Shown here: one piece after another, positions 1 through 55,557 of the stretch
Position numbering within the stretch: the stretch's first letter is position 1
How the letters are laid out: the number at the start of each line of letters is the position of its first letter
Assembly: GCF_000497125.1 (NCBI RefSeq)
Contig: NC_090596.1
Span: 1,426,001-1,490,000, forward strand
Length of the DNA: 64,000 bases
Source: Spironucleus salmonicida
Lineage: Eukaryota
Reading direction: 5' to 3'
Program-made: the position numbers and the translations under genes
The notes under the pieces: model-generated
What the model was told of the DNA's origin: nothing
The model's database searches: none
The model's input: only the letters and a program-made list of their open reading frames with translations

Positions 1-437
1 TATGCTTAATACTGTATTTGGTTTATTTTCTAATTTTTCTACAAGATATTTTAAGTCCGAAAGTCAAATAATTTACGTTGGTAGAAAAATTAAAGATTAA
101 TAACTGTAATTGACAGAAAAATAATGTTATGCTTACTTATTCACTATAAGTTTCGTTTTCAGCATCTGATAATTTAAACATATGTATTCACTATTAATAA
201 CTCTCATACTATTTAATATATCTTTCCTTATCTATTAAAGTATGTAACTTTATATATTATATAATACTAAAATACGAAGTCACCGCTCTAATGGATCTGT
301 CGCTTTCCTAATCATGGAGGTCAAAAAGAAATGAATAAAACGTTACTTAATCAAATGACTAGTTATTAAAAGCATTAAATTAAGCAAATTTAGAAATTCA
401 GAGTCTTATATAGCAAATAGATGCATTAGAACATAAA

Positions 438-8200: not shown

Positions 8201-9874
8201 ATGCCTCCTTGTCTTATTTGCTACGAAAACTGCAAATACATAGCATACACCGACTGCCAGCATTCTTGCTGCGTAAAATGTTACGAAATAGAGAATAATT
8301 TGTCAAAAAAGAATAAGTGTCTCATTTGTTCGTAGGTTAATCCTCAAGTCTGCCTGTGCCCAGCCCCACTACCGGTAGAAGACTTCACCAAGCTGAAACA
8401 CCTTAAAAATATTAAATTTGACTCTACACTTTCCGCCTTTATCCACAGCTCAGTGACTCCTTATCTAGCATCGCTAAGCCTACCAAAATGCCCGAAATGC
8501 GACTTCTAGCCAGCCTCGTAAGCCGAACTTCTAAATCATGTGACATAAACTCATAATCTCAGTTTCTGCAAAATATGCATCAAATTTAGACCTATGTTCC
8601 TAATTGACCAACCGTTGTTTGCGCGTCCCTAATTGGGGAAGCACATAGCCAGCCACCCGAAATGTATTCTATGTGGTGAGACTTTTTATGACAGCGAAGC
8701 ATTAAAATCACACTATCAAACTATCCACTACCGTTGCGACCTCTGCAGAAACTACTAGGTGGACGACTCTTACTGGGCTGGAATGCAGGATCTCGTAGAG
8801 CATATTAGCAGTGCGCACATCAGCTGCCCCTTCAAGTAGTGCTAACTTGAAGGGTTCGGGTTTGTGAGCGAAAAGCAGCAGATTGAGCACATATTAGAGG
8901 TGCACCAGGAGCAAATTGGTGCCAAAATTGACACTTATAAGCAAAAATTAAACAGCCTCAAGAAGCAGAAAAATATCGTAAATTTAGCAGATTTGGATGA
9001 ATTTAAGTAAAATTATTCAATTAATAACCGTAAACTTGATCGTACCCACAAAGTTAAGATCACAGAACAGCCTAGTGTTGTGAACGAACAGTTTGTGATT
9101 CAGTATTTTAACAACGTAAGAAAGGTGAAAAAAGTGCCCAGCAAGCAGCCTTAATACGAAGAATTCGTAGAGTAGAAATCACTCAACCAGCCGCACCAAA
9201 AACCGTTAAAAGCATAGACCCAAAAAGACGATTTACCGTTCTTTGCAGAGTCGAATTTCTTCCAAATCAAGCTCTAGAAGCAGTAAAAGAAGCAGAAATT
9301 GCAACTGATATAACAGAATCTGCAACAGTCTGAAAACATGTTTGATGAGATTCTGCAGTAGAAACCGCCGCGAAATTCCAGTAAGCCGGCAGCAAAACGA
9401 GCAGCACCTGAGAGCGCCAGAAACACACAATTCGACAACGTCGTCACGTGCTGCATCCTATTCGATTCTCGCGGACAGCCTTCCCAAATTGCGCTCTCGC
9501 GACTCGTTTCTGGCTCCGTCTCGGCGACGCTTTTCCTGGTTTTCAACGCAGATGACCCACTGAGTTTCGTGGTCCCGAGCGCTGCCGAATTCGGAAAATT
9601 CGGCTGCCTGCTCCGTAGCTTCTGCTACGCCAGCGCGGTCCAGCTCAGATGCCTGGGCGAGGTGAACGAGCGGATCCAAATGTGCGTTTCTGGTGTTTTC
9701 GGACGTGGCGAAGAAGTGAATTTCTACTGCATCAGCGAAGTAGCGGCATCAAAAGCTGCGATTTAGGACCTTTTTGGGTTCAAGTGTGTGGTGAGCGAGG
9801 AGCAGATAAGCACAATAGCGGGAAACGGCTTGTCTGCGCTAGAAATAGTCATCTAGAGTAATTCCAAAAAATGA
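8201..9874 (+). CDS. ZNF598/Hel2-like RING + C2H2 zinc-finger protein, paralog 1
   Basis: N-terminal RING CLIC...CQHSCCVKC...CLIC. Then CPKC..LLNHVTQTH, FCKIC, HPKCILCGETFYDSEALKSHYQTIHYRCDLC and HISSAHISCP, matching the ZNF598 finger array. Confidence 0.8.
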
Positions 9875-17759: not shown

Positions 17760-18668
17760 ATGATTGTAATATATCATGATCAATAAATATCAATTCTAGA
17801 AAATGGATATTATAAGACTAATACCTCAGTATATAAATTTGTATTAAAATGTAAAGATTTAACCGAAGAATGTTTGTTATCTTCAGAAGTTTGAAATTAT
17901 TTCTAGGTTGATAGAACGTATCATGTATTAGATATTTTTGGTCCAGTCAATAATTAAATAAAAGTGTTATATAACTCTAAGTATATAGAAAACGATTATA
18001 CTTAGGAGTTCCTGCAGCGGGTGTTCCTCCGCTGCGTTTAGCTGAGGCTCACCTGCCCCGCCGCCGAGACCATCCTGGTCAGGCCCGCGGACTACCCATA
18101 CCTGGACGGTCTGGGCTTCCGGGATGTGGTGGTGCTTCCGGAGCTGTCCCTGTACCAGTACATCTCCAAGTTCCTGCTGGGCCAGCGGCTCGCCACCCTC
18201 CCGCCGTACCAGGTGCAGCTCGCACAGGCGTTCGCAACCGACCAGGTGCGCCTGCTCTCCTTCGAGCTGCAGCCCTGCCAGCTCGTGCCGGTGGTGCGCG
18301 CCGTCGCGGAGACGACCGAGGCGGCACTCACCCAGGCGCAGCTGGACGCCTTCTACCGCCCGGGGAGCGTGAGGCTCTACACCACCAACGCGCAGGTGCT
18401 GCTGCCCGGGCTGGCGCTGCAGGGCGCTGAGCTGGACATCATCCGCATGGAGGTGGAGGCACCCGGCAACGACAACGTGGCGGAGTACTGCGCCTTCCGC
18501 GAGGACTACTTCGCCCTCCAGGCAGCGCGGCTCCGCGGCCGCAGCGTCGCCACCCGGGCCGAGGCGCACGCGCAGTTCCTGGACATCATGCAGACCGCGG
18601 TAGTGTAGGTGGCGCAGGAGCCAGAGCGCGGGGAGGAGCAGTTCGGTGGCGAGAAGTCGGCGGAGTGA
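17760..18668 (+). pseudogene. Copy 2 of GC-core Arp-like family, in-frame TGA at 17892
   Basis: MIVIYHDQQISILENGYYK...LLSSEV*NYFQ...FGPVNN...TQEFLQRVFLRC, collinear with copy 3. The TGA sits at a position that is Gly in copies 1 and 3. Confidence 0.7.
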
Positions 18669-18773
18669 GACTAATCTACATTCCATATGGAATACATATC
18701 ATTCGAAATTCTTGACGAAAGAAGTGGTTTGGGCTTACCATTTTGGTCATATATTAGGCATAGTGGGCAAACA
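17995..18773 (+). repeat. GC-rich core repeat plus 3' flank, copy 2 (779 bp)
   Basis: Inverted repeat of 29908-30686; only two substitutions seen. Confidence 0.95.
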
Positions 18774-18777
18774 TAGA

Positions 18778-20994
18778 ATGGACAAGGAATAGGATCGACT
18801 TTGGATAGGATATGAAAAGCAGATAGGGCATGGAACATCTAGTAATCTAGACCAGTTTCTTTTAACTATTGAATATATGTAAGGTTATCAAGCATATGCT
18901 TTGTTGCTAACGCTTACAGACATAATTGCATTTTTTGTTAATCATTAGTTTCCTTCTGACTATGATCCAGGTAGTAATTCAATAACCACAGTATTTTTTA
19001 TATGCATTTCTATTAGTCATGCCTTACTACAAACGTTAGACCTTATTACAGTGGCTTCATTTGGTATTAAAAATTAGGTTTAATGGTTCAATATTTCATT
19101 TCTTCTTTATTTTTTCTCTGTATTTAGCTATTATGTTGTGGGAATATATTATTTTCTAACCGATATTTCTTATTATTAAGTCATAAAGCTGAGGTTGGGA
19201 TTTCTAACCATATTTCGTGGTTATGTAAGAGCCATATCAAGACGAAATAAAATGAGATTCAGTAAAGCTATTATAAAGTAATGTAAATAACATGCATTTG
19301 TACTGAATACAGTTTTTATCTTTAAATCTATAGCAGTTGTTATTTAATGTATATATGGTCCTATTTGTTTCCTTGTTGTTTGTATGGGTTTAATATTTTT
19401 ACTTAATATTTACTAATAAGATGCAAAAACTTTTGTTGATAGCCTTTATTTTATTGTTGTAACTATAGCAACGGTTGGTTATGGGGATGTAGTATTAGAA
19501 GGTTAGATAGGTAGATTAATGAATGTTTGCATAATTTTATTTGCTATAGGATATGCACCTTATGCAATTTCATATATAGTTAATCGACTACGTACAGAAT
19601 TTTCTAAATTATTTTTACAAAGAGCTATATTTGGAGGAGTAGTTGTGATAGGGAAAAAAGATATGGATACTTTTAAATGTTTACGGATTGTTCTACCACC
19701 AAATCAATCAATATAATTTCTAATATAAACTTCAGAAACTACATTAGAAGAAAATGAAGATGTTAGATTATTTGGTTAAATAAATTAGAAAGTAAATTAT
19801 CATTTTAAGGAATAATTTGATAGATAAGATTTAGCTTATTTAGCTGTAAATCAATCCATTTTAACAATTGTATTTTCAAAAGAAAATCCAGATAGTACAA
19901 TTGAAGAAGATGGATAAACTATATTCAATGCAGTTCAGCTGGCATAGGTTTTAGAAGAAGGTAATATTATGCTAATATTTTTACAACATAATTAATCAAT
20001 AGAAATATGCAGAGATACAATAAAACAGTATATTAAGCCTTAATAATTTTATATATACTCCATTGGTAAAGTAATGAGCCATTTGATTGCTGTTTCATCT
20101 TATTATAAAGGATTTTCTACTTTTTTCTACAATATGTTATTGCCTAACAGATGCTAGATTAATAAATAACCAATGAGGTAATTAAATTTAGTATAAAAAA
20201 GACTTGACAATCTGGTAAATCATTTACATTCTGACGAATATAATAAAAATAATGAAAAATTAGAGTTATTTGAATTTTATAATAAGTCTTGTGGAATTTC
20301 TTCAGAGTTAAAACATTATATTTTTAATGCAAAAAGGAATAACCAAAATAAATTAAAAGTTGAAACTCCTATATCACAATATTATAAAGGCGAAAAAGCG
20401 AAAATTCTTATTGTAGTGATAGGTAATATAAATCAGTGTCTATTTGACTAAACCATGGACAAATTCAATTTGGACGAGTTGGAAGTATATTTATTATTAC
20501 ATTAAGCTAATATACTGAAATTTGATTCTGCAATATCATACGATGGGGATATATTTAATCCTTAAACTTATAGAAAGGCAGACGCATCAGTATTAATTTT
20601 TATGGATGATAACAATGGCAGAGAAGTAATGTTGCAACATATTTTGGAATAAGCATAGGTTAATTACACATTTTGCTGTCAAGAGAGTATGTTAGAAATA
20701 TAGGATAAACTGAGGTTATATTAATCATAAAATTATATGCCTTTTGGTATGTCATCATTAATTTCGATTGCTGCAAAATAACCATTAGTTTTTTAAAAAG
20801 CATATTAATTTCTTAAAAGCTTTCAGTGTATGTAATATCAAATTTTAAGTTATAAAACTATTGAAATGTGGGAAGCAGTTCATTCACAAGAGTTTATAAT
20901 ATATATAATTCGAGATAATTGTGTAATTAATAGGTATGATAAATAATTTGATTTGTATAAAGGAGATACCATCACAGCAGTACGCACATAGTGA
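18778..20994 (+). CDS. Potassium channel, BK/Slo-like (6TM plus cytoplasmic RCK-like region)
   Basis: Multiple TM segments, S4-like KLRLGFLTIFRGYVR, pore SLYFIVVTIATVGYGDV, long C-terminal domain. Confidence 0.85.
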
Positions 20995-24739: not shown

Positions 24740-26425
24740 TCATTTTCTGCACCCACAACCATACTCAGTAACGTGATGTACTGGGTTAAACCTGTAAGTT
24801 TTCATGTCCTACCAACTGTCCTTCCGATCCTAATTTAGCAATGCTGACCGAAGCCGAATGTCCTCATCGTACGCATTCTATAGCATCTGCCTACCCTGCT
24901 ATTTGACCATATCATTTTTCTACTTTCCTATCAAATCCTGCCTCACACGCTCTTTCGCTTGCTCCCTTTGTACTACTCGCGACTACTGACACGAGGTCGC
25001 CCTCGCTGTCCTACTGAGCTACGCCTAATACTCATTAGCTTTCGATGCAATTTTGCAGTTACGATCGAACTATGAAATCACTTTTTCCTGTGATGCATGC
25101 TGAGCTACAGAGCCATTCTGACCGCATTTAGGAATCGGCAAAATTTATGATTTTTCGAGGTGCTCGTTCAGGAAATTACCCAATACACGCTACTATACTC
25201 TCTTAAAGCGCTCGTCTGTGATTTTCTCACGCGCAACCGACTCTTCCAAGTGCTTACGGTTGATATAGTCTTCCTAAAACTCCTGTTTCTGGTCAATTTT
25301 CATGTTTTTTTGCTCACAGTCATCCAGCTGCTCTTTTAGCAGCTGCTCAGCCCGTTTTCGCATTGTTTCACGCAATTATGGCTTGTCAGTTAACACTGCC
25401 ACGTTGTCTACGTACTTTTTTTCACCAAAACGCTTTGACTTGCATTTTTACGAAGCAACTTACTCGTTGTACTAGCGCACGAGCATCTGTTGCTCACGGT
25501 ATCTGTTTTAGTCAGAGCTCTCCCGCTGCTTGTACCAATAGAAGTCCTTCTCATGCTGCTGGTTGAAATCACACTGTTCGCTGCGTTTGCTATGCACTTT
25601 CTGATATGCTTTTTCCTTTATATCACGAGCATAAAAGCAACCATCGCACTCAGTTTTCGTAGCGACGAACTTACCACTTTCCATTAAACTCTGCTTATTA
25701 GCACTTAATGTTTGGTCTTTGAGAGACTGCAGGGAGCCGTTTCTGACAGAGGTGGCAATTTGGTCAAACTCAAAATCGCACTATCGGAGCTGCTAGAGTG
25801 TGTTGACATAGCATTTTTAGGGAGTATCAGTTATAGTAACTTCAAATTTTGGACATATTTTCTACATTTTGCTGGACTGTGTTTGGAGGTTCTAGCGATT
25901 GATCGTACAGCTAAGTGCGCGTTTTGGAGTGTTTTACGGCTAGTAATTGGTTGAAAAGTATTATTTTTCATATTTTGTGTTGAAGAGTTCTTCGTCTTTT
26001 TTGTGTTACAAATGTACTTGTTTTTCAAGTTTCTGTGTACCTTAAATATGGGCAGACTAAGCTCGCTATTGTTGAGATGTGTACTCAAAGCCGTATGTAT
26101 GAGAAGTTCTGTTGATCCAAAGCTTCCCGACAGTTCCAAATTTCAGTTCAATATTGAATTTTAACGATGCCTACTAAATCACTTAAAATACATTATTTGG
26201 CATTTATACCATTACCGTTTAAGATGATGGTAAACCTGAACGATTTGAAGAGTGGTTTTTTAGGAGTAAAAGTGTAAAATTCGGGGAATTGAAAATACCA
26301 AAGCCTGGAACTAGAACAGGGAATGATTTTAATGTTGATTATAGCTACTAAATGAATTTACTAAATATAGCCATCGGAATATGCTTTAAAGTGAAATCTT
26401 GCTGGAGCTAATTGTTAGTGTACAT
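24740..26425 (-). CDS. CCDC81-like protein (HU-like N-terminal domains + coiled coil), paralog A
   Basis: PVLVPGFGIF and NIELKFGTVGKLWIN are HU-CCDC81-like motifs. Coiled coil RKRAEQLLKEQL...EDYINRKHLEE is shared with the 27008 gene. Confidence 0.65.
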
Positions 26426-27007: not shown

Positions 27008-29068
27008 ATGTCCATTTATACAAATGAATAACTTTACACCTACATTTCTTCCTTAAAATATCTCAAGACAACGTATAATGACGTTAAAGAAATAATACGT
27101 CAAATCTCATAATAACTTATAGATTCACTAGCTACATCTTAACCTGTAGAATTACGTTATTTTGCAAAGTTTGGATTCAATAAAAACGGTCGCCCAAATG
27201 CTATTTGCACATAAGAATTTTTGAAATCTGGATACTAACGATTCAATACTGATCAGAACCTTGACAAAGACTAGATTTTCAAGTAGTTTTCGTTCTCTAA
27301 TATTGATAATGGTCGTACAATATTACCTTACATCTTTACAGAAATATCGAACCAGATACTATTTAGGTCTTAAAAAGTGCGTATTACCTTCCCATAATTT
27401 TGCGAATTCACATTCGATAAAAGAAGTAGGGCTTATACCTTCAATTTTGTTTAAAATAACGAATTCAAGGCTCCTGAGGCAATATAAAAACAAATAACCC
27501 GATCTAAATCTTGTTCATAAGCCAGCAAAGCCAGATCAGAAGTATCGCAACAGAGTAACAAAAAGTAGTAATAGTATTACTAAGAGCACAATAGCAGCTG
27601 TGCACCAATACCACAAAAACGGAACAAATAACTGTCTTCTTAACAGTCAACAGTCTCCAGGGCTAGCTCATGCAGCCAAGTTTCGAGAGTATCATCTGCA
27701 AAATCTACATATTAATCGCAGCACAAGCTGTCGCAGCTAACTCCATCTATGCCTTCACAGCTAACATCATCGCTCAAGATATAGTATACACAACCTCCAA
27801 AAGCATATGAGCGTACCGGAAGACTCGACTTCGACTGCGGAGACCTACAGGATTTCGATGAATTCGACATTGAAAAGTACAAGGATCTACCAGCAGTACC
27901 ATAGGATGTCTACAGATATAAGCCAGTGCTTTTTGAACGAGCAGTGGCTGAAAAGAGCAGGCACTAGTTGCTTCCCGGGGACCAGGCCTACGCTAGTGAG
28001 CTTAACTCAACTTTCTAACGAACTAGACAATTAGTAGACTAATCAAAAGCACGAAAGCACGAACTGGAACGATCTCGATCTATGCCCCGCCAGTAGTGCA
28101 GAAAGTGTCACTACGACGATGATACTATGAACAAAAAGCTAAAAAGTTAAAGGTAGAAAAAGTCTGATTAGGAGGAGTATCAAAACTGGGCTAACAATAC
28201 TAACGTATATCAGGTTCAGCGTGAAATAGAAAATGCCAATCACTACTATGAGGTACAGAAATAGTGCCACGACGAAAATTTACTTGACGCGACGTCCAAA
28301 TACGACTAGAAGCATAACTACTTTTTAACCGGCCGATACAACCCGGAAAATTACTTATAGGAGTAAAAGGCCGTGTTATGGAACGATGATAGCCTGCAAG
28401 CTAAGAAGCGTAAGAGTGCTGAGTAGACACTGTAAGAGCAGCTCATCGATAAGCAGAATAAGGACATCGAAAAACAGCGAATTCCTGAGAAGCAAGAGGA
28501 CTTTATCAACCGAAAACTACTCGAAGACGATGTAGCTCAGCAAAAAATAAGAGATCAAAAGTTCAAATTCACATAGTAGGAAACGCTGAAGAACTTCCTT
28601 GATACCCAATCTGCCGGAGGAAAGCTCTGTGATATTCAGTCGAAATACGATATGACGTGCTGCATGGATGACTCTTACAAACGGAACGCTCGCTACGACG
28701 AGGTTTTTGATGCTAATAACCATATCCGAGCCTTGGATAACAAGAATGCAGCAGAGTATAGGAAGCAAAAATTGGAACTCAACAGGAAGCGGAGCATGCT
28801 GGAAACTAGATGCAACGATCAGCATGCTTTAGAGCATTTATATGATGAGAATATTCGCAGTTTAGCCAAAAAGTTCGACGTAAGAGATGATTTGTAGGAA
28901 ACTTACAACAAGGATATCATTCAAAAGGCCAAAAAATAGCTTTACGAGAAGACTAGTTCCTGGTAAGATATGGACGAATTCAGGTTTTAAAATGAAAAAA
29001 TCGCCAATTTGTAGTGTGACTGCTGCAAGCAGGTTTACCGATACGATAATGTTTTTAATTAAGAGTGA
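27008..29068 (+). CDS. CCDC81-like protein, paralog B
   Basis: DVKEIIRQISQQLIDSLATSQPVELRYFAKFGF and KVRITFPQFCEFTF; coiled coil RKSAEQTLQEQL...EDFINRKLLED. Confidence 0.7.
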
Positions 29069-29729: not shown

Positions 29730-29907
29730 AATTGTATCCTGGAATACTTTTATAGACAATAAATCGTACAATTATTGCTTTGCTTGTAAATCTTAATATG
29801 ATACTGTGATATATTTATATTCACTATAAGTAAATATTATCTGATTAGAATAATTTATTAAAGTTTGTTCATACTTATAAACATACGCTAAGACTAATCA
29901 TTTTCTG

Positions 29908-30686
29908 TGTTTGCCCACTATGCCTAATATATGACCAAAATGGTAAGCCCAAACCACTTCTTTCGTCAAGAATTTCGAATGATATGTATTCCATATGGAA
30001 TGTAGATTAGTCTCACTCCGCCGACTTCTCGCCACCGAACTGCTCCTCCCCGCGCTCTGGCTCCTGCGCCACCTACACTACCGCGGTCTGCATGATGTCC
30101 AGGAACTGCGCGTGCGCCTCGGCCCGGGTGGCGACGCTGCGGCCGCGGAGCCGCGCTGCCTGGAGGGCGAAGTAGTCCTCGCGGAAGGCGCAGTACTCCG
30201 CCACGTTGTCGTTGCCGGGTGCCTCCACCTCCATGCGGATGATGTCCAGCTCAGCGCCCTGCAGCGCCAGCCCGGGCAGCAGCACCTGCGCGTTGGTGGT
30301 GTAGAGCCTCACGCTCCCCGGGCGGTAGAAGGCGTCCAGCTGCGCCTGGGTGAGTGCCGCCTCGGTCGTCTCCGCGACGGCGCGCACCACCGGCACGAGC
30401 TGGCAGGGCTGCAGCTCGAAGGAGAGCAGGCGCACCTGGTCGGTTGCGAACGCCTGTACGAGCTGCACCTGGTACGGCGGGAGGGTGGCGAGCCGCTGGC
30501 CCAGCAGGAACTTGGAGATGTACTGGTACAGGGACAGCTCCGGAAGCACCACCACATCCCGGAAGCCCAGACCGTCCAGGTATGGGTAGTCCGCGGGCCT
30601 GACCAGGATGGTCTCGGCGACGGGGCAGGTGAGCCTCAGCTAAACGCAGCGGAGGAACACCCGCTGCAGGAACTCCTAAGTATAAT
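29908..30686 (-). repeat. GC-rich core repeat plus 3' flank, copy 3 (779 bp)
   Basis: Reverse complement of 17995-18773; direct repeat of 10894-11459. Confidence 0.95.
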
Positions 30687-30921
30687 TACCTTAAATATAA
30701 TTGAATTTATGCATTAACTAAATACCAATTGCTACTGGACCAAAGATATATAGAATCTCAAAGCCTTTCTCTTCTACAAAGTAGTTACCAACTTCTGCAG
30801 CTAAAAGGTCTTCTTCAGAAAATCCACTACATTTTATTTCAAATTTATACAAGGATAACCTTTCTTTATAGTGACCTTAATCTAAAATAGAGATATTCTA
30901 ATTTGAATAAATTGCTATCAT
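30013..30921 (-). CDS. Copy 3 (intact) of GC-core family; putative highly divergent actin-related protein, 302 aa
   Basis: Uninterrupted MIAIYSNQNISILDQG...EKSAE*. The actin/Arp-like motif order was noted by eye only. Confidence 0.7.
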
Positions 30922-31131: not shown

Positions 31132-32627
31132 ATGACTATCTAGCCTACTTATGAAGAAAGTGCATGTATGTTATGCTTTAAGTTTAGAGGTAATATTTTA
31201 TTAACATCAGTAACTTAAGTTTTTAAACCTTCATCAACTTATTAAATTTTTGACTACTAGTATGCAGTGTATGAAGACCTTAAATATGGCTCGTATTAGG
31301 TACAATATTAGAATAAAGATATTTCTATTGATGTAGAAAATTTAGTTTATGGTATTGATTTCACATCAGATAAATTAAATGAGTATAAATATTCTATAGG
31401 CGATGACGTGGTTATTATAGAAGGTAATTCAACTTAAGAAGGACCATTTTTACCATGTAAGCATGATATTTATTTATAGTTTAACAATATTTTACCTCCT
31501 TAAAAGTTAGTTTCTGGATATATGAAACTTTATCCGAATTAAAATATTATTCAGCTCTTATCTGGTACTAGTTAATTAATTTCCACATTAAATCATATTA
31601 AATAATCATACTAATAAGATTATATTTTTCATTACAATAATGAGTAAATTGCTATTCAAGCATTTTGGTGGTGCCATGGCAAAATTATACCTAATTAACA
31701 TACTTCTTGTGTTAAGTCAGTTGAGATAAATCCTTCTGATAGAGAGTATAAGTCATAGGCTACATCATCTACTTTGTAGACTTATTTAAAAATTGGGCAT
31801 AGAGGCTGTGGTATGAACAAAGCTTTTGCATCTGGTCGCGTAAAAATTGCTGAAAATACGGTAGAATCTTTTAATAAAGCATATGAATTTGGTATGGATA
31901 TGATAGAAACTGATGTAATAATAACAAAGGATAAAATTCCAATTATCAATCATGATTTTAAAGTTTAGTACCATGGATTAAATTTAGCAATAATTCACTT
32001 ACTCTGGAATAGTTTAAAAAAATAAAAATTGACAAATCTAATATCGATTTATTTTAAGATACCATGATATCTTCAGACTATATGCCAACATTAGATGATG
32101 TTTTATAAAATATTAATTAACACTGTGGAATAAATATTGAGATCAAATATCCTTCAAAGCATTGCTAAAATATTGGTCTTTAATATTTTTCACGTATTGA
32201 AGTTATTAGAATTATATTTGAGTCAATTAAAAAGTATTAGTCTAGAAATATATACTTTTCTTCTTTTGACCCTTATATTTGTTCAATATTAGCAGCAGTT
32301 TAAAATACTTATCCTGTTTTATTTTTACATTATGGTACAACAATTTATGAAAAAGATGAAGAAATAAATATGTCTTTTATTGAAGTGCTAGATGCTCGAT
32401 TTGGTCTGATCAGAGCTCAATAAATAGGTGTTCAGGGAATGGTACTTAGTAAAGAAGTATAATGCTGGGATAAAGACTTTATTTCTAAAGTTAAAAAAGC
32501 TGGTTTGAAGGTGTTTACTTATGGTACTGAATATGATGATATAGAATTTGTTAAAGATTAGTAGTAGAAAGGGGTAGATGGCATCATTTTTGATCTTGTT
32601 AATCATGATGGTAACCAAGGATGTTGA
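31132..32627 (+). pseudogene. Glycerophosphodiester phosphodiesterase (GPCPD1/Gde1-like) with 1-nt frameshift near 31992
   Basis: IGHRGCG, ENTVESF, IETDVIITKDKIPIINHDF lie in one frame. SLTLEQFK, PTLDDVL, INIEIKYP, FSSFDP, GVDGIIFD lie in another. May be a sequencing error rather than a pseudogene. Confidence 0.75.
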
Positions 32628-32688: not shown

Positions 32689-35295
32689 ATGTCTATCTGT
32701 GCTATTTGCTGTGACACATATGCATTCAAAGCTGTCACCGAATGTGGCCATGAAACATGTGCCAAATGTTGGCTTACTGAAAAACATCTTTGCTAACGGG
32801 GGAAATGCTTATTTTGTTCAAAAGAGAAAGCTTAGTCGATGATTCTTCCAAGTTCTTTAAAGTTAGAAGCATTTAGATATATGAAGGTTAAACCTTTTAT
32901 GAGTTTCAATTCTAAATATAAAGTTTATGTACATTCTTCTGCTGAGATTTATATATCGCAGTTAGAAAACCCTGCATGCCCAGTTTGCAATTAATAGTTT
33001 CTATAATTTTCAGAAATGTAGTTACATTTATAGAATAAGCATTCTTTGTAATATTGTAAAACATGTTCAAAATCTAAACCGGTTTTTAAAATTGACTAAT
33101 AGTTTTTTTCATCTAGTGATTTGAAGGCACATTTAAGTACTCATCCTACATGCAAACTGTGTAGTTTTAAATAGTATGATGATACATATCTGTAAGACCA
33201 TTATAAAATTTAGCATTTAAGGTGTGAAATTTGTAGAACTTTTGGTGTTAATGATTCATTTTGGGATACTTAGAAAGACCTTTAATCGCATATTAAGTCT
33301 GCTCACTTTTCATGTACATTTATTTAATGTAATAATGATGGATTTGGCTTCTGTAATGAAGAAGAATAATTGGATCATTTAATCGAAATTCATGCTAGCT
33401 AACTTACTTCAGGATAATTATCGGAATATAAAAATAAGCTAAGCTTAATTCGAAGAAGTAAAAAATTAGTCGATTTAAACTAATTGACAACTTTCTAAAA
33501 CTTATATTCTATTTCAAATAGAAAAATATCTTCAGATTAAAAAGGTATTATGACGACATAATATTAATAAGAAGCTGAAAATATGTATTTACAAGATTAT
33601 TTAGCATAAGCTTCTGTAGTACCTAAGTAAGCACATAAGTAAGCACAAGGTATACAATAATATATAGATTATGTAGAGCCTTAGATTCCATAGTAATAAT
33701 ATAAAGGCATTACTAAACAGTCTATTTAAGATATCAATTTTGGTATTAATTTACAACCTGCTACACCTGCTGGAATGTATAGTGAAATACGACCAACTCC
33801 TGTTTAATAAGAAGTTAATCCATTTTAGTCAACATTTGGATTTAAAATCAAGAAAGTTAAAACGAAAACCACTAAAACTAACGAGTAAGAGAAACAATAA
33901 AAGGCTATTACAAATATTTAAACAAATATGAATATCTTAGATAATGGACTATATGAAGAATTTACTATTAAAAATGAGGAAATCGAAGAAACTTAACCTT
34001 AGTAATTATTTGAAATAACAAAGTTAGAATAGGAATAGTTAAAAGATGAAGAGCCTATTTAAAAGACTAATTTGTTTGGAATTCCAATTAAAATTGTAAA
34101 AGCAAAGAAAAATTAATAATAACAGATCACTATTAATAATTCAGACGAAGTATTATTTAACCCATATGTGAATGTACCTTAAAAAATTTAATTATTTGCA
34201 CCAGTAGCAGTTAAAAAACAGACGACTATTGAAAATATTGGATCAATTAAATCAAATGATTTTATTTCCAGTATTAAAATTGTTAAATAAAAGCAAAAGA
34301 AACCATAAGAATAAATTTTTGAAGAAGATGTTGACTTTGACCCTATCATTAAAAAATAGACTCCAGTAGAACTTTTTAAAATTTAGTAGCCAAGAGTTAT
34401 GAATGATTTAACTAACAATTAAAATGAATAACTGGATTTAATATAAGTTACAAAAGTTAAACAGAAAAATACATAGTACTAACCGTAGTAAAAGATTAAT
34501 GTTATAACTGAAACAAAATCTTAAAACCAATCTTAACAAGGTAATCACATTATTATAACCTAAAAATAAAAGAAATAACCAAAGCATCAATCAATTTAAC
34601 AATAAGAGATTGTTGAAACTGTAGATTTAACATTAACAAAAGAAGAACTTAATATGATTCGCAACCCTCAACCCAAACTTGCTTAACCTGCTTTAATAAA
34701 GTAACAACCACCTTCCAAAAATCTATCCAATAATATTATTATGCAAATTAATAATATATTCCCATTAATGCCCTCTGAAATAGCACTTGCTCGTTATGTA
34801 GATAGCAAATTAGTTGCCACCCTATGTATAACTTTTGGATTTTCTATTGATTTAATCTCGAAATTAACTGATCAATTTCGTACGTTCAGTAGTGTTCAAA
34901 AATAAGCCATTAGTGATAAGCAACTTTAGTTTAGCGAAAATTATCTCTAAAATACTTATAAAATTGATCCAACTGATGTTGTTATCAACAAAATTTCAGA
35001 TTATCGTATTTTAAAATTTACGATATAATAGTTTTGTACAGAAAGCAGACTGAAAATTCTTGATATTTCTGCCATTAATTCAAAATGTCAAATTGAAGTT
35101 TTCGATAGTATTAGCAAAAATGAAGACTATAAACTACATTTGGTTAATTTATCAGATGATATAATTCTGACTAGAGTGTTGTCAGTTGATCACGAATTCA
35201 GTAATATTTTTGGATAAGTTTGTGAACATTCTAGAGGATGTAGAAAGCATAAAACTTGTGCACTAGACTCTGTAAAAGCGTAAAAATTATAGTGA
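32689..35295 (+). CDS. ZNF598/Hel2-like RING + C2H2 protein with C-terminal Maelstrom-like domain, paralog 2
   Basis: RING CAIC...CGHETCAKC...CLFC; fingers CPVC, YCKTC, HPTCKLC, HLRCEIC, HFSC; long Q/P/K linker; C-terminal PSEIALARY...CEHSRGCRKHKTCALDSV. Confidence 0.8.
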
Positions 35296-35296
35296 A

Positions 35297-36202
35297 TCAT
35301 TTCAGTTACTCGAAATATATTTTAAAAATCTATAACCTATTTTTGGCATATAGTTCATAACCAGCTTTGGATCCCCATAGGCTCCATAGACCCCAGACAA
35401 AAGGCTAGAAAATAGCTAAGATCTCTTCGCAAATAGTAATATCCACGTTTTCCGTGAAATATGTTTTATAAAATATAGTTCTCTGCTCTAATGTTGCGTA
35501 GTCTGCATAAATTGCGTCAATTCCTGTAAATTCAGCAAAAAAACAAGCTATATCATAAAAATTATATGAAACTGAAGCATATTCAAAATCTATGAAATAA
35601 GCCTGGTTATTATTGAAAATTATGTTTCCAGCATGTGCATCATTATGGCAAATACAAACTTTAAGAAGGTGAGGATACGCAGTTTTATAAAAATTTATTT
35701 ATTAAGTGATGAAATTGACGAAATTATCAAAAGTTTCCTTATCTTATTCGTAATACCATTAATGTTAATAAAATGCTGGAATATAGTCAAATAAGCTAGG
35801 TTTTTGCCCAATTTAATGTTAATGAAGCTTTTAAAATGCGGTTGCGATTTGAATAAGATTATCAGCTTGTCCTAATAAACTATCCTGTTCAAGTAATGAG
35901 CCCTCAATATATTTCGTAATAAAAAATGCATCAAAATGAATAAGTTCTTCAGTAACAACTTAACAATTCTAAGAAATTAAATATTATAAAATTTAAATTT
36001 CTTTATCCTGATCTCTCATAAATATTTCCTCTCTTTTTAAATATCTACGTAATAAATACTTTTAATCTAAAATTTATACAATAAAATTATCATTTGTACA
36101 GCCAGATACTCGTTCTAGTATCTTAATTTATTAAGATATGGATTTTTCGATCTATGCTATTTCTTCTTAGACATCTGCAAAGTCATTTTAGATTTAAAGC
36201 AT
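35297..36202 (-). CDS. Choline/ethanolamine kinase
   Basis: SGCTNDNF; Brenner motif ICHNDAHAGNII; FIDFEYAS...YDIACFFAEF. Confidence 0.9.
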
Positions 36203-36352
36203 TTTATGCTACAATACTTATCTATAATATTGTGGGTAAATATTTTATATAATTGTGAATTCAATTAAATCTATTGCAATATAGTATTATATAATAAATA
36301 GTAAGCAAAAATAATAAGAATAATATATAGTAAATACCTTTACTCGAAAATA

Positions 36353-37207
36353 ATGACAGACCAACTTTACACCTTTTTTAAGAAAAGTCATGCCGAGACA
36401 CTTCTTAAAAATCTGTAAGAAATACTTTAATCAACAACTTTAGATCTTTATACACCTGTTTTAGAAGATAATAAGCTTTAAACTATACACGAAGATTATC
36501 GTTCAAAAATTTAGCATCCAATGTCTCTTAAAAAAGTTAGAGAGCGTACTCTATCCTCAAATTCACCATATTACTTAGTAGGTCACTTTATTTATGATAT
36601 TCAACTCATAATTTCAAATGCCCGTTTATATAATTCTAACAAGCCAGAAGTTTTAAATATTATTAAATCTTTCGAAGATAAAATTTAATCCTATTTTCCA
36701 GAGATCTAAATATGTGCTATTGATTTTTAAGAACCAATTCCACCTCTTTTTCTATAAATGCTTTGTGGAAAATTATCTGTATTATCTAATTAAGAACTGA
36801 AAGACGCTCTTCAAGTTTCTTAAATTTAAGGGATAAAAATTGATTTTAAAACACTCTCTAAAAAACGATTTTGGCCATTTGTTCAATTGATTTTTGAGTT
36901 TAAAAATGATGATATTGACCTTTCGATTTATGCAAAAGCAAGTACTCCTAAGGTAAAAATGATGTAATAAAGTAGTTTTCCTGCTATTATATCACCTGAA
37001 GTTGTAAAAAGTAAATCAGTGGTATAGATTTTAAAGAAACGAATCGAACAAACAGGTGGAGGGTAAGAAGTCAAAATTGCATAGTTTGTGAAAAGCGAAA
37101 GTGTAACAGAGACACCAGTAGTTTTGACAAAAGTTAGTCCTTTAGAGCTTCTAAGGATGAAATAATAGAAAAAAAGAGAAGAACATGAAAATAATATAAT
37201 ATAATGA
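36353..37207 (+). CDS. Bromodomain protein
   Basis: DYRSKIQHPMSLKKV...FIYDIQLIISNARLYN. Confidence 0.85.
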
Positions 37208-39105: not shown

Positions 39106-40488
39106 ATGTCTGACTAAGAATCGTCATCGTCTTCATCCTCTGGATCATTTGGAATTCCTGAAGGAATATAAGATCTAGATTTTGGTCGCTCTCATACCAC
39201 TAAATCACTATGTACATCATGTGGTTAATAAGGTATTACAAGACTATTATTTGTAGATATTCCTAAATTTAGAGAAATAATAGTTTCATCTTTTAAATGT
39301 AAAAATTGTGGTTTATTTGGACGAGATGTGCAACAAGCTAGCGAAATTTAAGACAGATCTGTAGAAATTACGCTTCCTGTCAAATGTTCAAAAGATCTAT
39401 CTAGAGGTATTGTTAAATCATCATTCTGCTTAACTATGATTCCTGAATTGGGATTTGAAATCGCTGCTCGACCTATGTCAGGGGTTTATACAACTCTTGA
39501 GGGTCTTTTAAAACAAGTGGTTGATAACTTAGGGCTATTATAAGCAGAGAGGAGATAACATGATTCTGTATATGCAGCATAAATAGATGATTTCATTGAG
39601 AGATTAAACTAACTACTGGCTAAAACAGCTATTCAAGAGATTCCATCTTAAGAGCCATTATTCACAATTAAATTTACTGACCCATCAGGAAACTCACATG
39701 TTGAACCGTTTGAAGATCTTCCATATACAGAAAAATTCATTTATAGAACTAATGAGTAGGCAAAAGAAATCGGTCTAACAAAAATTCAAGAAAAATAAAT
39801 TTAGCAAGAGGCCAAGTCAATTAAAATAGACCCAATAAAGTTAGATGATATAACCATCCTATGCGATTAAAATGATGTAGTTGCTGAGCTCCCAATAGAC
39901 TGCCCAAACTGTGAAAAAAAGATTTTTAACAGATCAGTTATTATAAATATTCCTTATTTTAAATAATGCTTACTATAAGCTGCTAGTTGTGATGATTGTA
40001 GTTATAGAAGCGTTGAAATTAGCTCAGCTGGCGCTATTTCTCCAGTAGGCAGAAGAACTACTTTTAAAGTAACCGATGCTACTGATTTAAGTCGTGATGT
40101 TCTTAAAAGTGATACTTGTAGTATAGAAATTCCAGAACTTGGATTAGAACTATAGCCAGGTACATTAGGAGGAGTCTATACGACTCTAGAAGGTCTAATG
40201 ACAATGCTGAAAGATGAACTTACAAAACATAGTATGTACTGGGTTGGTGATGCTTATAGGGATCCGAGCCAATAGAATAATTTTAATGAGTTAGTCTACA
40301 AATTAAATGATTGTGTCGACGGTAAAATGAAATTTACTATTATAATTGATGATCCATTAGATGGTAGTTTCATCAAGAATATTTATGCTCCTGATCCTGA
40401 CCCAGAAATGCAAGTAGTTACTTATGAACGCACCCACGAGCAAAATGAGGAGTTTGGATTCAATGATATTGATGTTGGTGAAGACTGA
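39106..40488 (+). CDS. ZPR1: Zinc-finger protein ZPR1
   Basis: Two ZPR1 modules: SLCTSC...IPKFRE...CKNCG, and CPNC...IPYFK...CDDC...DLSRDVLKS; GGVYTTLEG; DDPLDGSFI. Confidence 0.95.
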
Positions 40489-43334: not shown

Positions 43335-43940
43335 TCACTCGTAAATGAGCTCCGTAACGGCTTTTTGTAGCGCGAACACCTGGCTACAGTCCATTTTCTT
43401 GAAATCGAACCTATGTGCCTGCTTCAAAACCGTCCTCTACGCCTCCGATAGGGACGAGATCTGCTGTAACAAAATCGTTTCGTCCACGTCGATTTCCTAA
43501 ATCAGCACCTGCGGCCTGAAACTCGGCGTAATGCCCAAATGGAATATCTGCGAATTCGTCAGCTTAGTGAAAAATTGCTATTACAACATAACCAGAATGT
43601 AGTTCAATAGTTCGTCAGCTTGCTCTGCGATTCCGGTGGTCCCCGAAGCTTATGCGAATCGGGTGCAGTTAACGTGAATTTGCACAACATCCCGCACGAA
43701 ATCATACATGAGGCGGTGCTTCAGCTGCAAAAGGCTCTTTTTGATCATATCCAGCGAGACTGGGCGTTTTACAATGTCAGTGTATGTAGGTAGGTTTGAA
43801 CCTATGTAGTCCACGCAACCAAGAAATCCCTAGGAGAAAGATCTTTGTTTTGATGCCTATGTGATGATCTTAAAAAGCTTAATGCGCGACTCGTCGCCTA
43901 ACTATATAGAGCCAAATTTAACTTACTGGTCGGATAACAT
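43335..43940 (-). CDS. Divergent bromodomain protein
   Basis: FLGCVDYIGSNLPTYTDIVKRPVSLDMIKK...FVRDVVQIHVNCTRFA. Confidence 0.8.
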
Positions 43941-43990
43941 TAAATAAATAAGTTGTTATACTATATATAAATACTGTTAAAAATTTAAAA

Positions 43991-46267
43991 ATGATTTAGT
44001 AAAACTTGGACGATTATTTATGCATTAACAATGCATAGAGTTTAAAGCTGTCGAATATTTAGCGATACTGTTATATAGAGATCATTAGCATACTAAGTCT
44101 TTTGGATTTTAATATATTTTTCAGTTTAGTAGACTAGCCAGAATAGATTCTAGTTTAGTAAGGTTTGCGACTCAAATTTGCTTATAATCATGCATATAAT
44201 GTTGATAATTAACAAAAAATTTAATTTTCGTTATATTAATATGCTAAGTTGAAGTAAAAGGACGAGTTATTTGAAAAAAGTTATTTCAAAATAAGTAATT
44301 TTTTAGGGCTTGACAAATAAATAGTAAATTCAGAGTTTATTGTAGGGGATAATTAGATATAATTTAGTTTTTATATTGGTATATAATCTATTAGGAAAAT
44401 TATTGAGTGCCCATCGTTTGTTTTACAAAATACTAAAGAATAATAAATATTATTTTAATAGTAAAAATTAAATGACACATTACTTTTCCGTCAACTTATT
44501 GAGGAAAATTAACTCTTGACATAATAATACTCGTTGTAAAAGTCTATATTATCATGTTTGGAAATCATCTTTCCTGGTATGAAAAATGATTATGATAATG
44601 ATGATGAACAAATATAAGCTATAGCTATGTATGAAGAAATGCTATAAACTATTACACAAAATATTCTATAAAAAGAGTAAACAGATTAAGATATTAACAA
44701 GATTAAAGAACTAATAGATTCCATATTTCTAATGTAGTAAAATGATTTTCTTCAGAAATAGATTATTTTATTTCCTATATTTGCTGATAATTTATAAGTA
44801 GTATCATTAAGTTCACTTATTTTAGAATAATTTGAAAAATCATCGGAATTTAAATTTCTCCCTATATACTATAAGCATAAAGAGGAATTAAACCTAGTTG
44901 GAAGATTAACAATTTTACTAGGCCTTATTTACAACTTTTTTAAAGTATTTACTTTTAAGACCAATTCTGTTGTGTACAAAGATGGAGAAGTCTCTAATCT
45001 TTAATAATTTTTAGAAAATTGCTAAAATTAAACGGATATAGATCTTTACTCTTATGGGAATATTTAGTATTAAGTATGTATTAATAAATTGAAAGATGAA
45101 TTAGATATTAATGATTATTTAATTTAAAACTCATTTGTGACTATTCCATATCTTAAAATGTTAATTCTGGTAGATGACGACGATCACTACAGGTCAGAAT
45201 TATTTAGTATAATTTCATAATATAATTAACTATCAAAGGTAAACTCCTTATAATAGATAATAAATATTTTTAATTTACCAAACTCTGAAGAAAACGATAT
45301 CATCCAAAAGTCAATTAAAATAATGAGTTATTTATCATAAATTTGTTTAATACCTCCAACTACGATACCGCCTGCAGTATTGTATCCAATACCATAGTTA
45401 AATTAATAGTATGTATAAGACTTAAAAGAGTTTTAATAAAACAATAAAGAGGAAAATAAATATTTTTACTTACTGTATTGTAAAATGATTAAATAGGGAA
45501 ATATTTGTGATTAAATAGCTAATATTAGTACGAAATACCATTAGAAATTTATAAAATAGGAATGGTATGCTTTATTATTCAAACTTCAATATTGTAAATT
45601 CAGTTAAGATTTTTAAACATAATTATCAACCAATTTTATTTCTAGACTCTAAAATTATTTAATGTGCACAAGAGTAGGGTATTTAAATCCCATAATAGTA
45701 GATGCAAAATGTGTGGAGTTATATGAAAAAGAATCTATTAATAAAAAAGGAGTTACTATCAAATAGATTTGTTAATTATTAAAACTAGAAGCTTGGGAAA
45801 ATATATAAATTTAATCTGATTAAGATACTAAGCTTAAAGTATGCGTAGGAACTGAACATGATGATTTTGATATTACGAACAAAGGAAGTATCTATAATAA
45901 AATGACTTCTTTAGTAATAAATGATATTTAGACTAACAAAAATCAAGAAAATAATTATATTTAAAAACATACAAATCTTATTTCAGTTGAAAATACTAAG
46001 CCAAAATTTATATTAAAAGATTAATAATTTTATGATAATTAAGTTTCTATTGAAATTCCATAAAAATATGCGAAATACATATATTTTTATCATGATGAAG
46101 ATGTTAATGCCAAGAATTAACTTGAAACTGAAATTATAGAGTTTGCAAAGAAGCGAGATTAAGATGATGTATACATACTTATTGATGATACAAATTTATA
46201 TACAATTGAAGAATTTGTAATAACTAAATGCAAGACAACCAAATTTATTTTAGTCTCTATTATGTGA
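43991..46267 (+). CDS. Large hypothetical protein (758 aa)
   Basis: Long AT-rich frame, open in the alternative code; no motif recognised. Confidence 0.6.
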
Positions 46268-53341: not shown

Positions 53342-53980
53342 TCATTGCAGAGATACAAATCCTGGCAACTCTTTATTTTATAAATCCTAAGTACTCTTAG
53401 GAGTTGGTAGTAAATTGTTAATAATACTATTAGTTGTTGGGCTAGCACATTAAGCTAATCTATAAAGTTCTTGGACTTATAATGTTTTTAGATCTTCATA
53501 GTCTTATTATTATACTGTCACGCAACTGATCCATGATACTTCGGTGTTTAAACTAATTAACTAATTTAATTTGTCACAATATAGTATTTCTAGCCCAATC
53601 AATATGTTTATAGCGTCATAAAAACGTCGACTGGTTTAGAATTTGATTGATAATGTCTTCATTGGTAACGGATAATTAATTAAAGTTCTAATAATACCTA
53701 AAGCGGTTTATTGCAACTAACTATCCTTACGACCCGTATCATAACAGTTTGTACAAATCATATGAAATCTATTTTAAAGCTCTTATTGAGGCGGAACACT
53801 ATATGTTTTAAAATCTAATTTATCAAACAGTTTTAACCCATCTATTATAGTAAAAACCTCCCCTATGCGCCTAGTGTCAATCATCAATTACTAATAAAGC
53901 ATTTTAACCGTCACCAGACTATACTTATTTTCTATAATCTTATAAATAATCTAATTGGCAATACTTTACAGCTTCTCCAT
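53342..53980 (-). CDS. Atypical E2F-family factor with two winged-helix DNA-binding domains
   Basis: TRRIGEVFTIIDGLKLF and SRRFYDAINILIGLEIL both resemble the E2F RRxYDxxNVLxGxxLI signature. Confidence 0.75.
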
Positions 53981-54039
53981 TTTCTATTAGTATATTTTTA
54001 TATATTAATATAATAAAAACATATTCATTTCATTACCTC

Positions 54040-55557
54040 TCATTTCAATCCAGAGCAATATTTTCCCAATTCTAGCATAAGACATCGAAGTCCCCTAATG
54101 ATCTTTCCATCATCAAATTCACATTGAATTTCAAATTTACCCATTTTCAGACATTTTTTGGCTTTTGGTAACATTGCTCGATCACCGAAAAACGGAACTG
54201 CAACATTGCAAATAGGCTCATTTTCACATATTATTAAGCAAAATGGGGGGCCATTTGCCTATGTAAAAGGTAACCGAAAAGCTATTTTCTAAAATGGAAA
54301 ATTACGGTTCAACTGCTTAAAATCTAGTAATATTTATGGCTATTTGAATGCATAATAGGAAAGTAAAGCATAAACTACATTTCTTTCGAAACAGGTGATC
54401 TATATAGATGAAAATACATTTTATATTTTATTGTACAAATCCATATGATCTCCAAAACGCAATATTTTAGAACCAAAAATAAGTTCTGGTTCGATAATTT
54501 CACCTTAAAATGACAAGTCCGAAGGAGTTGGATTTATAAAAGAAGGAGATAAAATTTTGATAACATCAGCACCTGAATTAAAGTTGGATTATGCATATTT
54601 GTTGAATAGATGCTTTTATTGCTAAATAAGTTTTTCTGGTAATTGTGAGCTTTTCTTTTTAATAAGTGAGGAATCATACTTTGGAGATGCGGTAGGCTTT
54701 TTTGAGCTCTAACGTATTGGGGGTGGACTTGGTTGCGGGTTTGAGCTGGATGAACTAGGAGAAATTTGATGAATTTAGAAGTCATTTTCATCAAAAAATG
54801 TTGTCTACAACGGATGCTTTTCAGGAGCATTATATTCATCTAAAAAAATATTTTTACTCTCCTATTTAGTGGATTCTCTCTACCCTGCTAATTTCTAGCA
54901 GTCCATAATTAAATTTTCATTCAGATACAGCTTATGTTTAATTTTAGCACGTTCTTCATAAGTGTTTACGTTAATCAATGCCTCTTGGAGTCTGATTTTC
55001 TCCTACTAAAGCCTAAAAAGCGTCTATTTAAAGTTAATTTTCATCTCATTTACTAAATTTTCATCTTCAAATTTTTCAAGCATTTTACGTTTGAAATCCA
55101 GTTGCTACTCTTATTATATTATCTCTATTCTGTCCTTAGATTTGCATGCATTACACACCCCACAACAACAAGTACAGACTGGGCATAAACATCCAATTCG
55201 CTTCGCCAATTAACATGTTCTGCAGTAGCACTCGCATCGGCATAGATGTAGCACTTTAAGACAGTGGAAACAGTTAAAATTTGACTTTTCGAAAGGCATA
55301 AATGGTGACGTATCCTAGTAAATGCAAGGTTTCTAGTAGGATTTAACACAGGATTCGCAATGCTAGCTTGGAGTTTACCGGTGTACCTGATGTAGACTTC
55401 GTATTTTTTCTCGTTCATATTCTCGCAGTTTCCAGTAGTTTTAAATATCTGAATTTTTATATGGACATTTTGCTTTAAATACACCTGGCCTAGAGCCGGC
55501 TCTTTCGTCTGCGTAAAATCTCCCTGCATATAGAACACCAGGTATAGCTTTTTACAT
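54040..55557 (-). CDS. Hypothetical protein with N-terminal Cys cluster and coiled coil (505 aa)
   Basis: MQKAIPGVLYAGRFY...CFHCLKVLHLCRCECYCRTC...CLCPVCTCCCGVCNAC..., continuous to TGA at 54040. Confidence 0.7.

Follow-up and report, generated by a model that had tools for sequence, protein, structure and literature searches.

What kind of protein is encoded at 32689–35295, on the plus strand of a 64,000-nucleotide (nt) stretch of Spironucleus salmonicida DNA (contig NC_090596.1, positions 1,426,001 to 1,490,000; this whole stretch is called the window below), and what is the domain at its C-terminal end? An initial annotation described a ZNF598/Hel2-like E3 ubiquitin ligase fused to a Maelstrom (MAEL)-like domain. 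The reading preferred here, with a probability of about 0.4, is that of a divergent ZNF598/Hel2-type E3 with a non-catalytic, possibly OTU-like C-terminal domain (C-domain), encoded by one of a pair of paralogous genes in the window. For the C-domain taken by itself, the best reading is a lineage-specific non-catalytic module of a ZNF598-type E3, possibly OTU-like.

With TAA and TAG read as glutamine, the gene formed a single open reading frame (ORF) of 868 codons closed by TGA, in which 81 TAA/TAG codons were decoded as Gln. When the letters were inspected directly, the ORF began with ATG at position 32689 and closed with TGA at 35293–35295. The part encoding the C-domain (34729–35295) was broken by eight TAA/TAG codons under translation table 11 and ran uninterrupted under table 6, in which TGA is the sole stop; its translation began with NNIIMQINNIFPLMPSEIALARY and ended with GQVCEHSRGCRKHKTCALDSVKAQKLQ before the stop. 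The alternative genetic code assumed earlier was thus borne out, and the peptides quoted in the initial annotation for both ends of the domain were reproduced. A single termination codon, together with a genome of ~12.9 Mbp and three confirmed introns, is described for one sequenced hexamitid diplomonad (PMC3916229). An identical 868-residue protein, with no name shown, was already present in public collections as the sole member of its 90% cluster. In a second study, three runs (X5–X7, taken to be RNA by guess only, as the kind of sample is not on record) gave contigs that spanned 33410–36026, 33474–35092 and 34292–35543 without any joint or differing letter, and the linker and the C-domain are therefore regarded as one uninterrupted piece; contig gaps between genes, and at 33221–33337 in some runs, were given no weight. 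The window was AT-rich and gene-dense. The gene for a glycerophosphodiester phosphodiesterase (GDPD) ended 62 nt before the ATG, and a convergent choline-kinase gene had its stop only 2 nt beyond the TGA, leaving no room for another gene downstream.

The order of modules claimed for the protein, a RING finger followed by a C2H2 array, a long linker and a folded C-terminal domain of ~190 residues, was recovered in the 868-residue ORF. The C2H2 pattern (C-x2-4-C-x12-21-H-x3-5-H) occurred at residues 97–118, 123–152, 155–176, 179–206 and 209–235, with all Cys and His invariant in the paralogue, and in both proteins the array stood directly behind the RING, which is a ZNF598/Hel2 trait. The best Pfam family was RING_ZNF598 (PF25447), which matched the whole protein with an expect value (E) of 3.8e-5 and 24.4 bits, and residues 3–84 of the N-terminal 330 residues with an E of 1.2e-5 and 26.0 bits, the cut-off being 27. 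In the Atlas feature search, ZNF598-type families were placed at ranks 1, 2, 3, 6, 7, 15, 18 and 21 among the listed neighbours and generic RING families at ranks 19 and 20. The ten best family-bearing matches all shared a family or clan (scores 0.88–0.77), and the neighbour cluster at rank 2 was commonest in Fornicata, in keeping with the metamonad origin presumed in the initial annotation. Because the best score, 0.88, lay below the 0.9 set by the tool, this likeness is treated as a lead only; the structural template-modelling (TM) score was at most 0.33 over the full length.

Two observations weigh against the ZNF598 assignment: RING_ZNF598 stayed under the Pfam gathering score in both queries of the 868-residue protein, and in the paralogue Pfam gave generic RING and C2H2 matches without any match to RING_ZNF598. 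No PAH_ZNF598 or ZNF598-type C2H2 match was found by Pfam in the 868-residue protein, and residues 236–330 had no Pfam family. PDB searches with the N-terminus returned generic RING and C2H2 chains only, the profile search matching the C2H2 chains of CTCF. The ZNF598/Hel2 label of the initial annotation therefore stood as the best family by both Pfam and Atlas and fell short of the Pfam cut-off. As judged from its sequence, the N-terminus is very probably that of a divergent ZNF598-type E3, and its RING could in principle recruit an E2. Like ZNF598 of mammals and Hel2 of yeast, the protein has an N-terminal C3HC4 RING, then a C2H2 array and then a long low-complexity region. It differs from them in its Q/K/I-rich linker, in which a basic motif is repeated, in its folded C-terminal domain of ~190 residues, for which no family is recognised, and in the presence of a pair of paralogues in the same window.

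The paralogue was detected 24 kb upstream, so that the RING–C2H2–C-domain architecture, described in the initial annotation as not known from elsewhere, has a second copy in the same window. Its product of 557 residues, also present in public collections, aligned with the first 330 residues of the 868-residue protein with 37% identity (E 7e-71), the RING and finger ligands occupying identical positions. The two genes differed in codon style, with a GC content at third codon positions of 0.47–0.63 in the paralogue versus 0.18–0.24 in the 868-codon gene, and with canonical CAA/CAG at 32 of 50 Gln codons versus 22 of 103, the rest being TAA/TAG. This gap may reflect expression level or age.

The relationship extended to the C-terminal ends. 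Of 721 six-frame segments, each C-domain had the other as its best match (E 0.058 and 0.042), and BLAST gave a segment between them with an E of 0.002. A Smith–Waterman comparison gave z = 4.6, a score reached by 4 of 2000 shuffles; with cheap gap extension, z rose to 6.2 and none of 1000 shuffles reached the score. The conserved blocks were P-S-x-I-A-L-x-R-x-V, A-T-L, D-P, F-C, F-G-x-x-C and A-L-x-x-V, and ~40 mostly helix-like residues between the A-T-L and D-P blocks were absent from the paralogue. The columns corresponding to E17, C171, H174 and C177 of the C-domain, the zinc ligands proposed in the initial annotation, contained Q, I, N and S in the paralogue, with A at H155 and F at Cys33. 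Since the paralogue has these substitutions at the ligands, A at H155 and no His at all, the C-domain appears to be non-catalytic and, as a family trait, not zinc-dependent. From the alignment, it is a domain common to both paralogues without shared Cys/His ligands. The terminal Cys/His cluster would be an add-on of the 868-residue paralogue only, possibly a small zinc knuckle.

Composition separated the C-domain from the region in front of it. With a hydropathy of 0.489 versus a Uversky boundary of 0.415 and 40% hydrophobic residues, residues 681–868 fell on the folded side. The linker (residues 261–680, ~420 residues; Q 16.7%, K 11.2%, I 10.7%) had a hydropathy of 0.405 versus a boundary of 0.418 and fell on the disorder side. 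The linker contained three copies of a basic motif with the consensus F-G/S-x-x-I-K-I/K-V-K-x-K (also given as F-x-x-I-K-I-V-K-x-K), and the paralogue had one copy; three copies were seen in none of 2000 shuffles, the pattern having been picked post hoc. For the C-domain no family was found in Pfam, NCBIfam, PHROGs or PADLOC, bar a chance-level match to DUF5626. Chou–Fasman prediction combined with hydrophobic periodicity, computed with crude scripts of our own, gave a hint of a strand-rich stretch at domain residues 105–140.

The OTU-like reading of the C-domain comes from the Atlas structure search, conducted with residues 670–868 of the Atlas's own model. Six of the ten rows returned (1, 2, 4, 5, 7 and 8) were OTU or Peptidase_C65 clusters, with TM scores by query of 0.42–0.48 over 120–134 aligned residues, both sides being predicted models. 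The aligned part was itself the OTU domain in rows 1, 7 and 8 and the otubain domain in row 5. OTU domains are described as having ~15% mutual identity and variable helical content (PMC7396840), which would fit the failure of sequence profiles and the loss of ~40 residues in the paralogue. The domain of the paralogue comprises ~135 residues and the minimal OTU domain 122 (PMC4654579). Inactive OTUs are reported to be common (PMC4654579), Drosophila Otu and CG3251 being examples for comparison. The pathway context would also fit, as OTUD3, a deubiquitinase of the OTU family, acts on and reverses ZNF598 marks (PMC7064338) and OTUD6 acts on eS7 (PMC11316749).

Much else speaks against an OTU assignment. 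The lead came from a single search on an Atlas model whose whole-protein predicted local distance difference test (pLDDT) was 0.47 and predicted TM score (pTM) 0.30, and every row was flagged as below the tool's bar for naming a family, with TM below 0.5. The Atlas feature search with the C-domain gave no usable match. Pfam OTU (PF02338) and Peptidase_C65 (PF10275) had no match at E ≤ 10 in seven queries (the whole protein, the 188-residue domain and five overlapping fragments) and none for the domain of the paralogue, and no PDB chain was found by sequence for the C-domain. AlphaFold2 models built from the two-sequence alignment were unusable for both the C-domain (mean pLDDT 30.5, pTM 0.18) and its counterpart in the paralogue (mean pLDDT 36.7, pTM 0.28), and they conflicted on the P-S-E/Q-I-A-L element, a strand in one and a helix in the other. 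The catalytic motif of OTU enzymes consists of a Cys in the Cys-loop and a His followed by a large aromatic residue and then D, N or E (PMC7396840). In the C-domain the four His residues (137, 155, 167 and 174) precede L-V, E-F, S-R and K-T, so the His–aromatic–acid motif is absent, and no G-N-C or D-G-x-C Cys box occurred in any frame of the window. Compared with OTU1/YOD1, OTUB1 and OTUD3, the C-domain thus has its nearest predicted-structure neighbours in this group and lacks the catalytic Cys loop, the His–aromatic–acid motif and any profile match, and it would be a pseudo-enzyme at best. That the C-domain is OTU-like is suggested by the model at somewhat less than even odds. The more specific proposal, that both ZNF598-like paralogues carry in cis a degenerate OTU/otubain-fold domain without catalysis and so represent a collision-sensing E3 with an in-built pseudo-deubiquitinase that might read ubiquitin or trap E2~ubiquitin on the 40S subunit, is rather unlikely.

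If the preferred reading is followed, a mechanism can be proposed by analogy. The RING-finger module would ubiquitinate 40S proteins on collided ribosomes, as ZNF598/Hel2 does, and the basic linker might contact rRNA or mRNA; the C-terminal region of Hel2 is described as an RNA-binding region (PMC6362110). The C-domain would serve as a non-catalytic interaction module and not as a Maelstrom nuclease-fold domain. Its fold may be a stripped-down papain fold of the OTU/otubain type from which the catalytic Cys and the His–aromatic–acid motif were lost, as suggested by the one weak structural lead. As a pseudo-deubiquitinase it could hold ubiquitin or E2~ubiquitin in the way of OTUB1, which is described as doing so without catalysis (PMC6254341). 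In this way the ligase might be retained on 40S subunits that already carry marks, or the building of chains might be tuned. No ubiquitin motif was found in the window. In the literature, ZNF598 and "OTU domain" were not combined among the best-ranked matches, which is not proof of absence.

A chain with both kinds of module exists in A20/TNFAIP3, which has an active N-terminal OTU domain and A20-type fingers with E3 activity and acts in NF-kB signalling. Should the OTU lead be right, the protein described here would resemble A20 in joining ubiquitin-ligase and OTU-fold modules in one chain; the order would be reversed, the OTU-like part would lack catalytic residues and the ligase part would be a RING.

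If the pseudo-deubiquitinase interpretation were true, one chain would join two activities that in animals and yeast belong to separate, antagonistic proteins. If the C-domain were OTU-derived or, against the odds, MAEL-derived, a deeply divergent eukaryote would link collision sensing to ubiquitin reading or RNA handling in one polypeptide, and the gene would offer a compact model for the interplay of E3s and deubiquitinases in ribosome quality control. For now the gain is more modest and consists of a correct gene model and family for two unnamed public proteins, together with a second copy of the architecture.

The alternative that survives best is that the C-domain is a lineage-specific fold unrelated to OTU and MAEL, a diplomonad-specific module by which ZNF598-like ligases would bind the ribosome, RNA or a partner, with the OTU neighbours being an artefact of a poor language-model structure. 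Taken as a whole, this explanation is possible, with odds clearly short of even. The four family collections gave the domain no family, an exhaustive phmmer search with the C-domain among 1.84 billion representatives returned only itself, the Atlas features gave no usable match and TM stayed under 0.5, and AlphaFold2 folded neither paralogue domain. In addition, of the 8067 genes in one sequenced hexamitid, 4799 are described as without detectable homologues even in Giardia (PMC3916229). However, six of ten independent Atlas neighbour clusters fell in one protease clan, which is unexpected of chance neighbours, and blank homologue searches are weak evidence. The word-index search illustrates this: it returned only the query itself from 509 candidates for the C-domain, 329 for the N-terminus and 4329 for the full-length two-sequence profile, and the 37%-identical paralogue of 557 residues, although present in the collection, was not returned, so these blanks count for little. 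In scans of viral contigs, none of 153 stretches found with the C-domain alignment and none of 35 found with the N-terminal alignment was confirmed, and PHROGs, PADLOC and NCBIfam gave nothing relevant. One locus from the metagenome scan (L001) was rejected as spurious, as the pattern matched the strand opposite a bacterial cupin-like ORF.

The Maelstrom identity given in the initial annotation, that is, an RNase H-fold domain derived from the DEDD group, with zinc held at an ECHC site, that would couple collision sensing to RNA binding or cleavage, is improbable. The residues named there do exist: E17, C171, H174 and C177 were all present in the 188-residue domain, the Glu in a strand-like P-x-E-I element and the others as C171-x2-H174-x2-C177 followed by A-L, the label "MAEL-type" being an interpretation. 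The distance from the Glu to the first Cys was 154 here versus 153 in Bombyx MAEL (E137, C290), and the Cys-to-His spacing was 3 in both (PMC4408791). The Cys/His pattern C..H.{2,10}C was rare, with nine occurrences in a six-frame set of 97,171 residues from the window, and one low-confidence AlphaFold2 model formed a beta-hairpin from the Glu element and the next element, followed by helices. DEDD-type acidic motifs are absent from both MAEL and the C-domain. Animal MAEL sequences may resemble the C-domain in a few more short stretches, a lead that does not outweigh the failed comparisons below.

These likenesses did not extend to the family itself, for which crystal structures from Bombyx and Drosophila exist. 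The comparison of the 34729–35295 peptide with the Pfam Maelstrom profile (PF13017), recommended in the initial annotation, gave no match at E ≤ 10 in the same seven queries, HMMER filters discarding most matches above E ~0.1. A lack of profile similarity had been set there as a refuting outcome, and on that ground the Maelstrom identity fails. No PDB chain was found at E ≤ 10 for the C-domain, the two-sequence profile or domain residues 1–46 and 81–188, MAEL structures being assumed to be in the PDB copy used; the search with the C-domain of the paralogue gave four weak, unrelated matches. Among the ten closest structural neighbours returned for the Atlas model, no MAEL, DEDD or RNase H family was seen. 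The His-to-last-Cys spacing was 3 here and not 9 as in Bombyx (H293, C302; PMC4408791), just 11 residues followed the last Cys, and the C-terminal half of the C-domain seemed strand-rich rather than helical, a weak indication from our own scripts. With seven Glu residues in the C-domain the Glu spacing is easily obtained, and the loose pattern occurred in 2 of 721 segments. The most telling point was that the only homologue found, the domain of the paralogue at 9413–9871, lacks all four ligands, whereas in MAEL the zinc is described as structurally paramount, and in Bombyx it is bound by E137 of strand 2, C290, H293 and C302 (PMC4408791). A wider EHHCHC signature, with two further conserved His, is described for the family (PMC2628886). 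The paralogue also lacks ~40 residues that follow the third strand-like element and extend to the next conserved block. In an RNase H fold these would form the crossover helix that joins strands 3 and 4, a connection that the five residues left could not make, and this counts against MAEL as well. In the literature, "Maelstrom domain" was not found together with ciliates, and Maelstrom and diplomonads were not combined among the best-ranked matches, which does not prove absence. In all probability, then, the C-domain is not a bona fide MAEL domain, and a Glu plus C-x2-H...C at the right distance should be considered insufficient for a Maelstrom call where the genome is AT-rich and only one codon serves as stop.

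It is very improbable that the C-domain is an active OTU deubiquitinase, with Cys33 and His155, for example, making the protein a self-editing ligase. The same Atlas neighbours would agree with this, and the two residues are in the right order, 122 residues apart. Both are, however, replaced in the paralogue; Cys33 lies within a hydrophobic strand-like stretch and not behind a D/N-G-N-type loop, and His155 precedes E-F and not an aromatic residue with D/N/E (PMC7396840). The absence of a canonical Cys box from the window and of a Pfam OTU match points the same way.

Still less probable is the weakest alternative, that the domain is an accidental TGA-free read-through or a separate gene and is not translated as part of the 868-residue protein. 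Random ORFs arise often when a single stop codon is in use (by base composition, a stretch of 188 codons lacking TGA has P = 0.033), and overlapping ORFs are numerous in the window. However, P falls to 1.5e-7 for 868 codons, and the annotated frame had the best codon usage of the six in the N-terminus, linker and C-domain alike. The domain also has the composition of a folded protein, its homologue occupies the same relative position at the C-terminus of the paralogue, and contigs bridge linker and domain unbroken.

Table 1. Coordinates of the gene, its paralogue and their parts (positions in the window; residue numbers refer to the 868-residue protein unless marked as domain residues).
Feature	Position	Strand	Basis
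Whole gene, 868 residues and TGA stop, intronless	32689..35295	+	ORF reading; identical public protein; no contig joints
C3HC4 RING finger, residues 4–43	32698..32817	+	RING pattern match; 8 of 8 ligands invariant in paralogue
Five C2H2-type zinc fingers, residues 97–235	32977..33393	+	Pattern at identical positions in both paralogues
Post-finger region conserved with paralogue, residues 236–330	33394..33678	+	Within the 330-residue alignment, 37% identity, E 7e-71
Q/K/I-rich, disorder-like linker, residues 261–680; start overlaps conserved post-finger region	33469..34728	+	Composition, hydropathy, codon score
Basic motif copy 1, F-G-F-K-I-K-K-V-K-T-K, from residue 383	33835..33873	+	Pattern scan
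Basic motif copy 2, F-G-I-P-I-K-I-V-K-A-K-K, from residue 463	34075..34113	+	Pattern scan
Basic motif copy 3, F-I-S-S-I-K-I-V-K-Q-K-Q-K-K, from residue 525	34261..34299	+	Pattern scan
Folded C-terminal domain, residues 681–868 (188 residues); "Maelstrom-like" domain of the initial annotation	34729..35292	+	Translation, hydropathy
Glu17 of the C-domain, in P-S-E-I; proposed zinc ligand, Gln in paralogue	34777..34779	+	Residue scan, alignment
Cys/His cluster C-x-H-x3-C-x2-H-x2-C, domain residues 165–177	35221..35259	+	Only first Cys kept in paralogue
Paralogue: RING, five C2H2 fingers, short linker and shorter C-terminal domain, 557 residues	8201..9874	+	Pfam sweep of the window's long ORFs
C-terminal domain of paralogue, 153 residues; no His, four proposed ligands and ~40-residue helical segment absent	9413..9871	+	Alignment, shuffles

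The upstream GDPD gene (31132–32627, plus strand) was split into two overlapping ORFs. In the X5 and X7 contigs one extra A behind 31991 merged them into an ORF of 498 residues, and the split probably reflects an indel in the assembly or an allelic difference. Promoter-like sites in the window were at chance level (21 found, 21.9 expected), and no tRNA or Rfam family was found there.

Genes of the ubiquitin system were frequent in the window, with the two E3 paralogues and one E1. The latter is a ThiF-fold gene at 62039–64000 (minus strand) encoding a ubiquitin-activating E1 of the UBA1 type with ThiF, SCCH and UFD domains, which continues past the window end. A second ThiF-fold gene, at 3268–4002 (minus strand), is small, GC-rich (0.54) and ThiF/TcdA-like, its best NCBIfam match being TcdA (2e-29, below the cut-off).

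Another divergent paralogue pair, divergently oriented, was observed at 24743–26425 (minus strand) and 27008–29065 (plus strand), with 29% identity over 359 residues (E 2e-22). Neither had a Pfam family, and both ended in a conserved S-W-Q-D-M...F-R-F...C-x-C motif.

A GC-rich (~0.6) core of ~570–800 nt was present in three copies with 98–100% identity, at 10894–11486 (plus strand), 17971–18778 (inverted) and 29903–30710 (plus strand), each within AT-rich flanks unrelated to one another. The ORFs of the core had no Pfam, NCBIfam or PDB match, and the core may be a conversion-homogenised gene family or a mobile segment. The ORF at 129–2570 (plus strand, 814 residues) encodes a coiled-coil-like N-terminal half followed by repeats (1414–2493), in which ~27 tandem 30-nt units encode the decapeptide P-Q-M-E-V-E-P-V-A/V-E.

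The neighbours at 35936–37204 (plus strand), 43338–44036 (minus strand), 53345–54085 (minus strand) and 39106–40485 (plus strand) comprise two bromodomain proteins, a winged-helix protein of the E2F/DP type and a ZPR1 zinc-finger protein. Further genes of the window encode a CNNM+CBS protein, an Arf-family GTPase, an ion channel and a UPF0020 methyltransferase.

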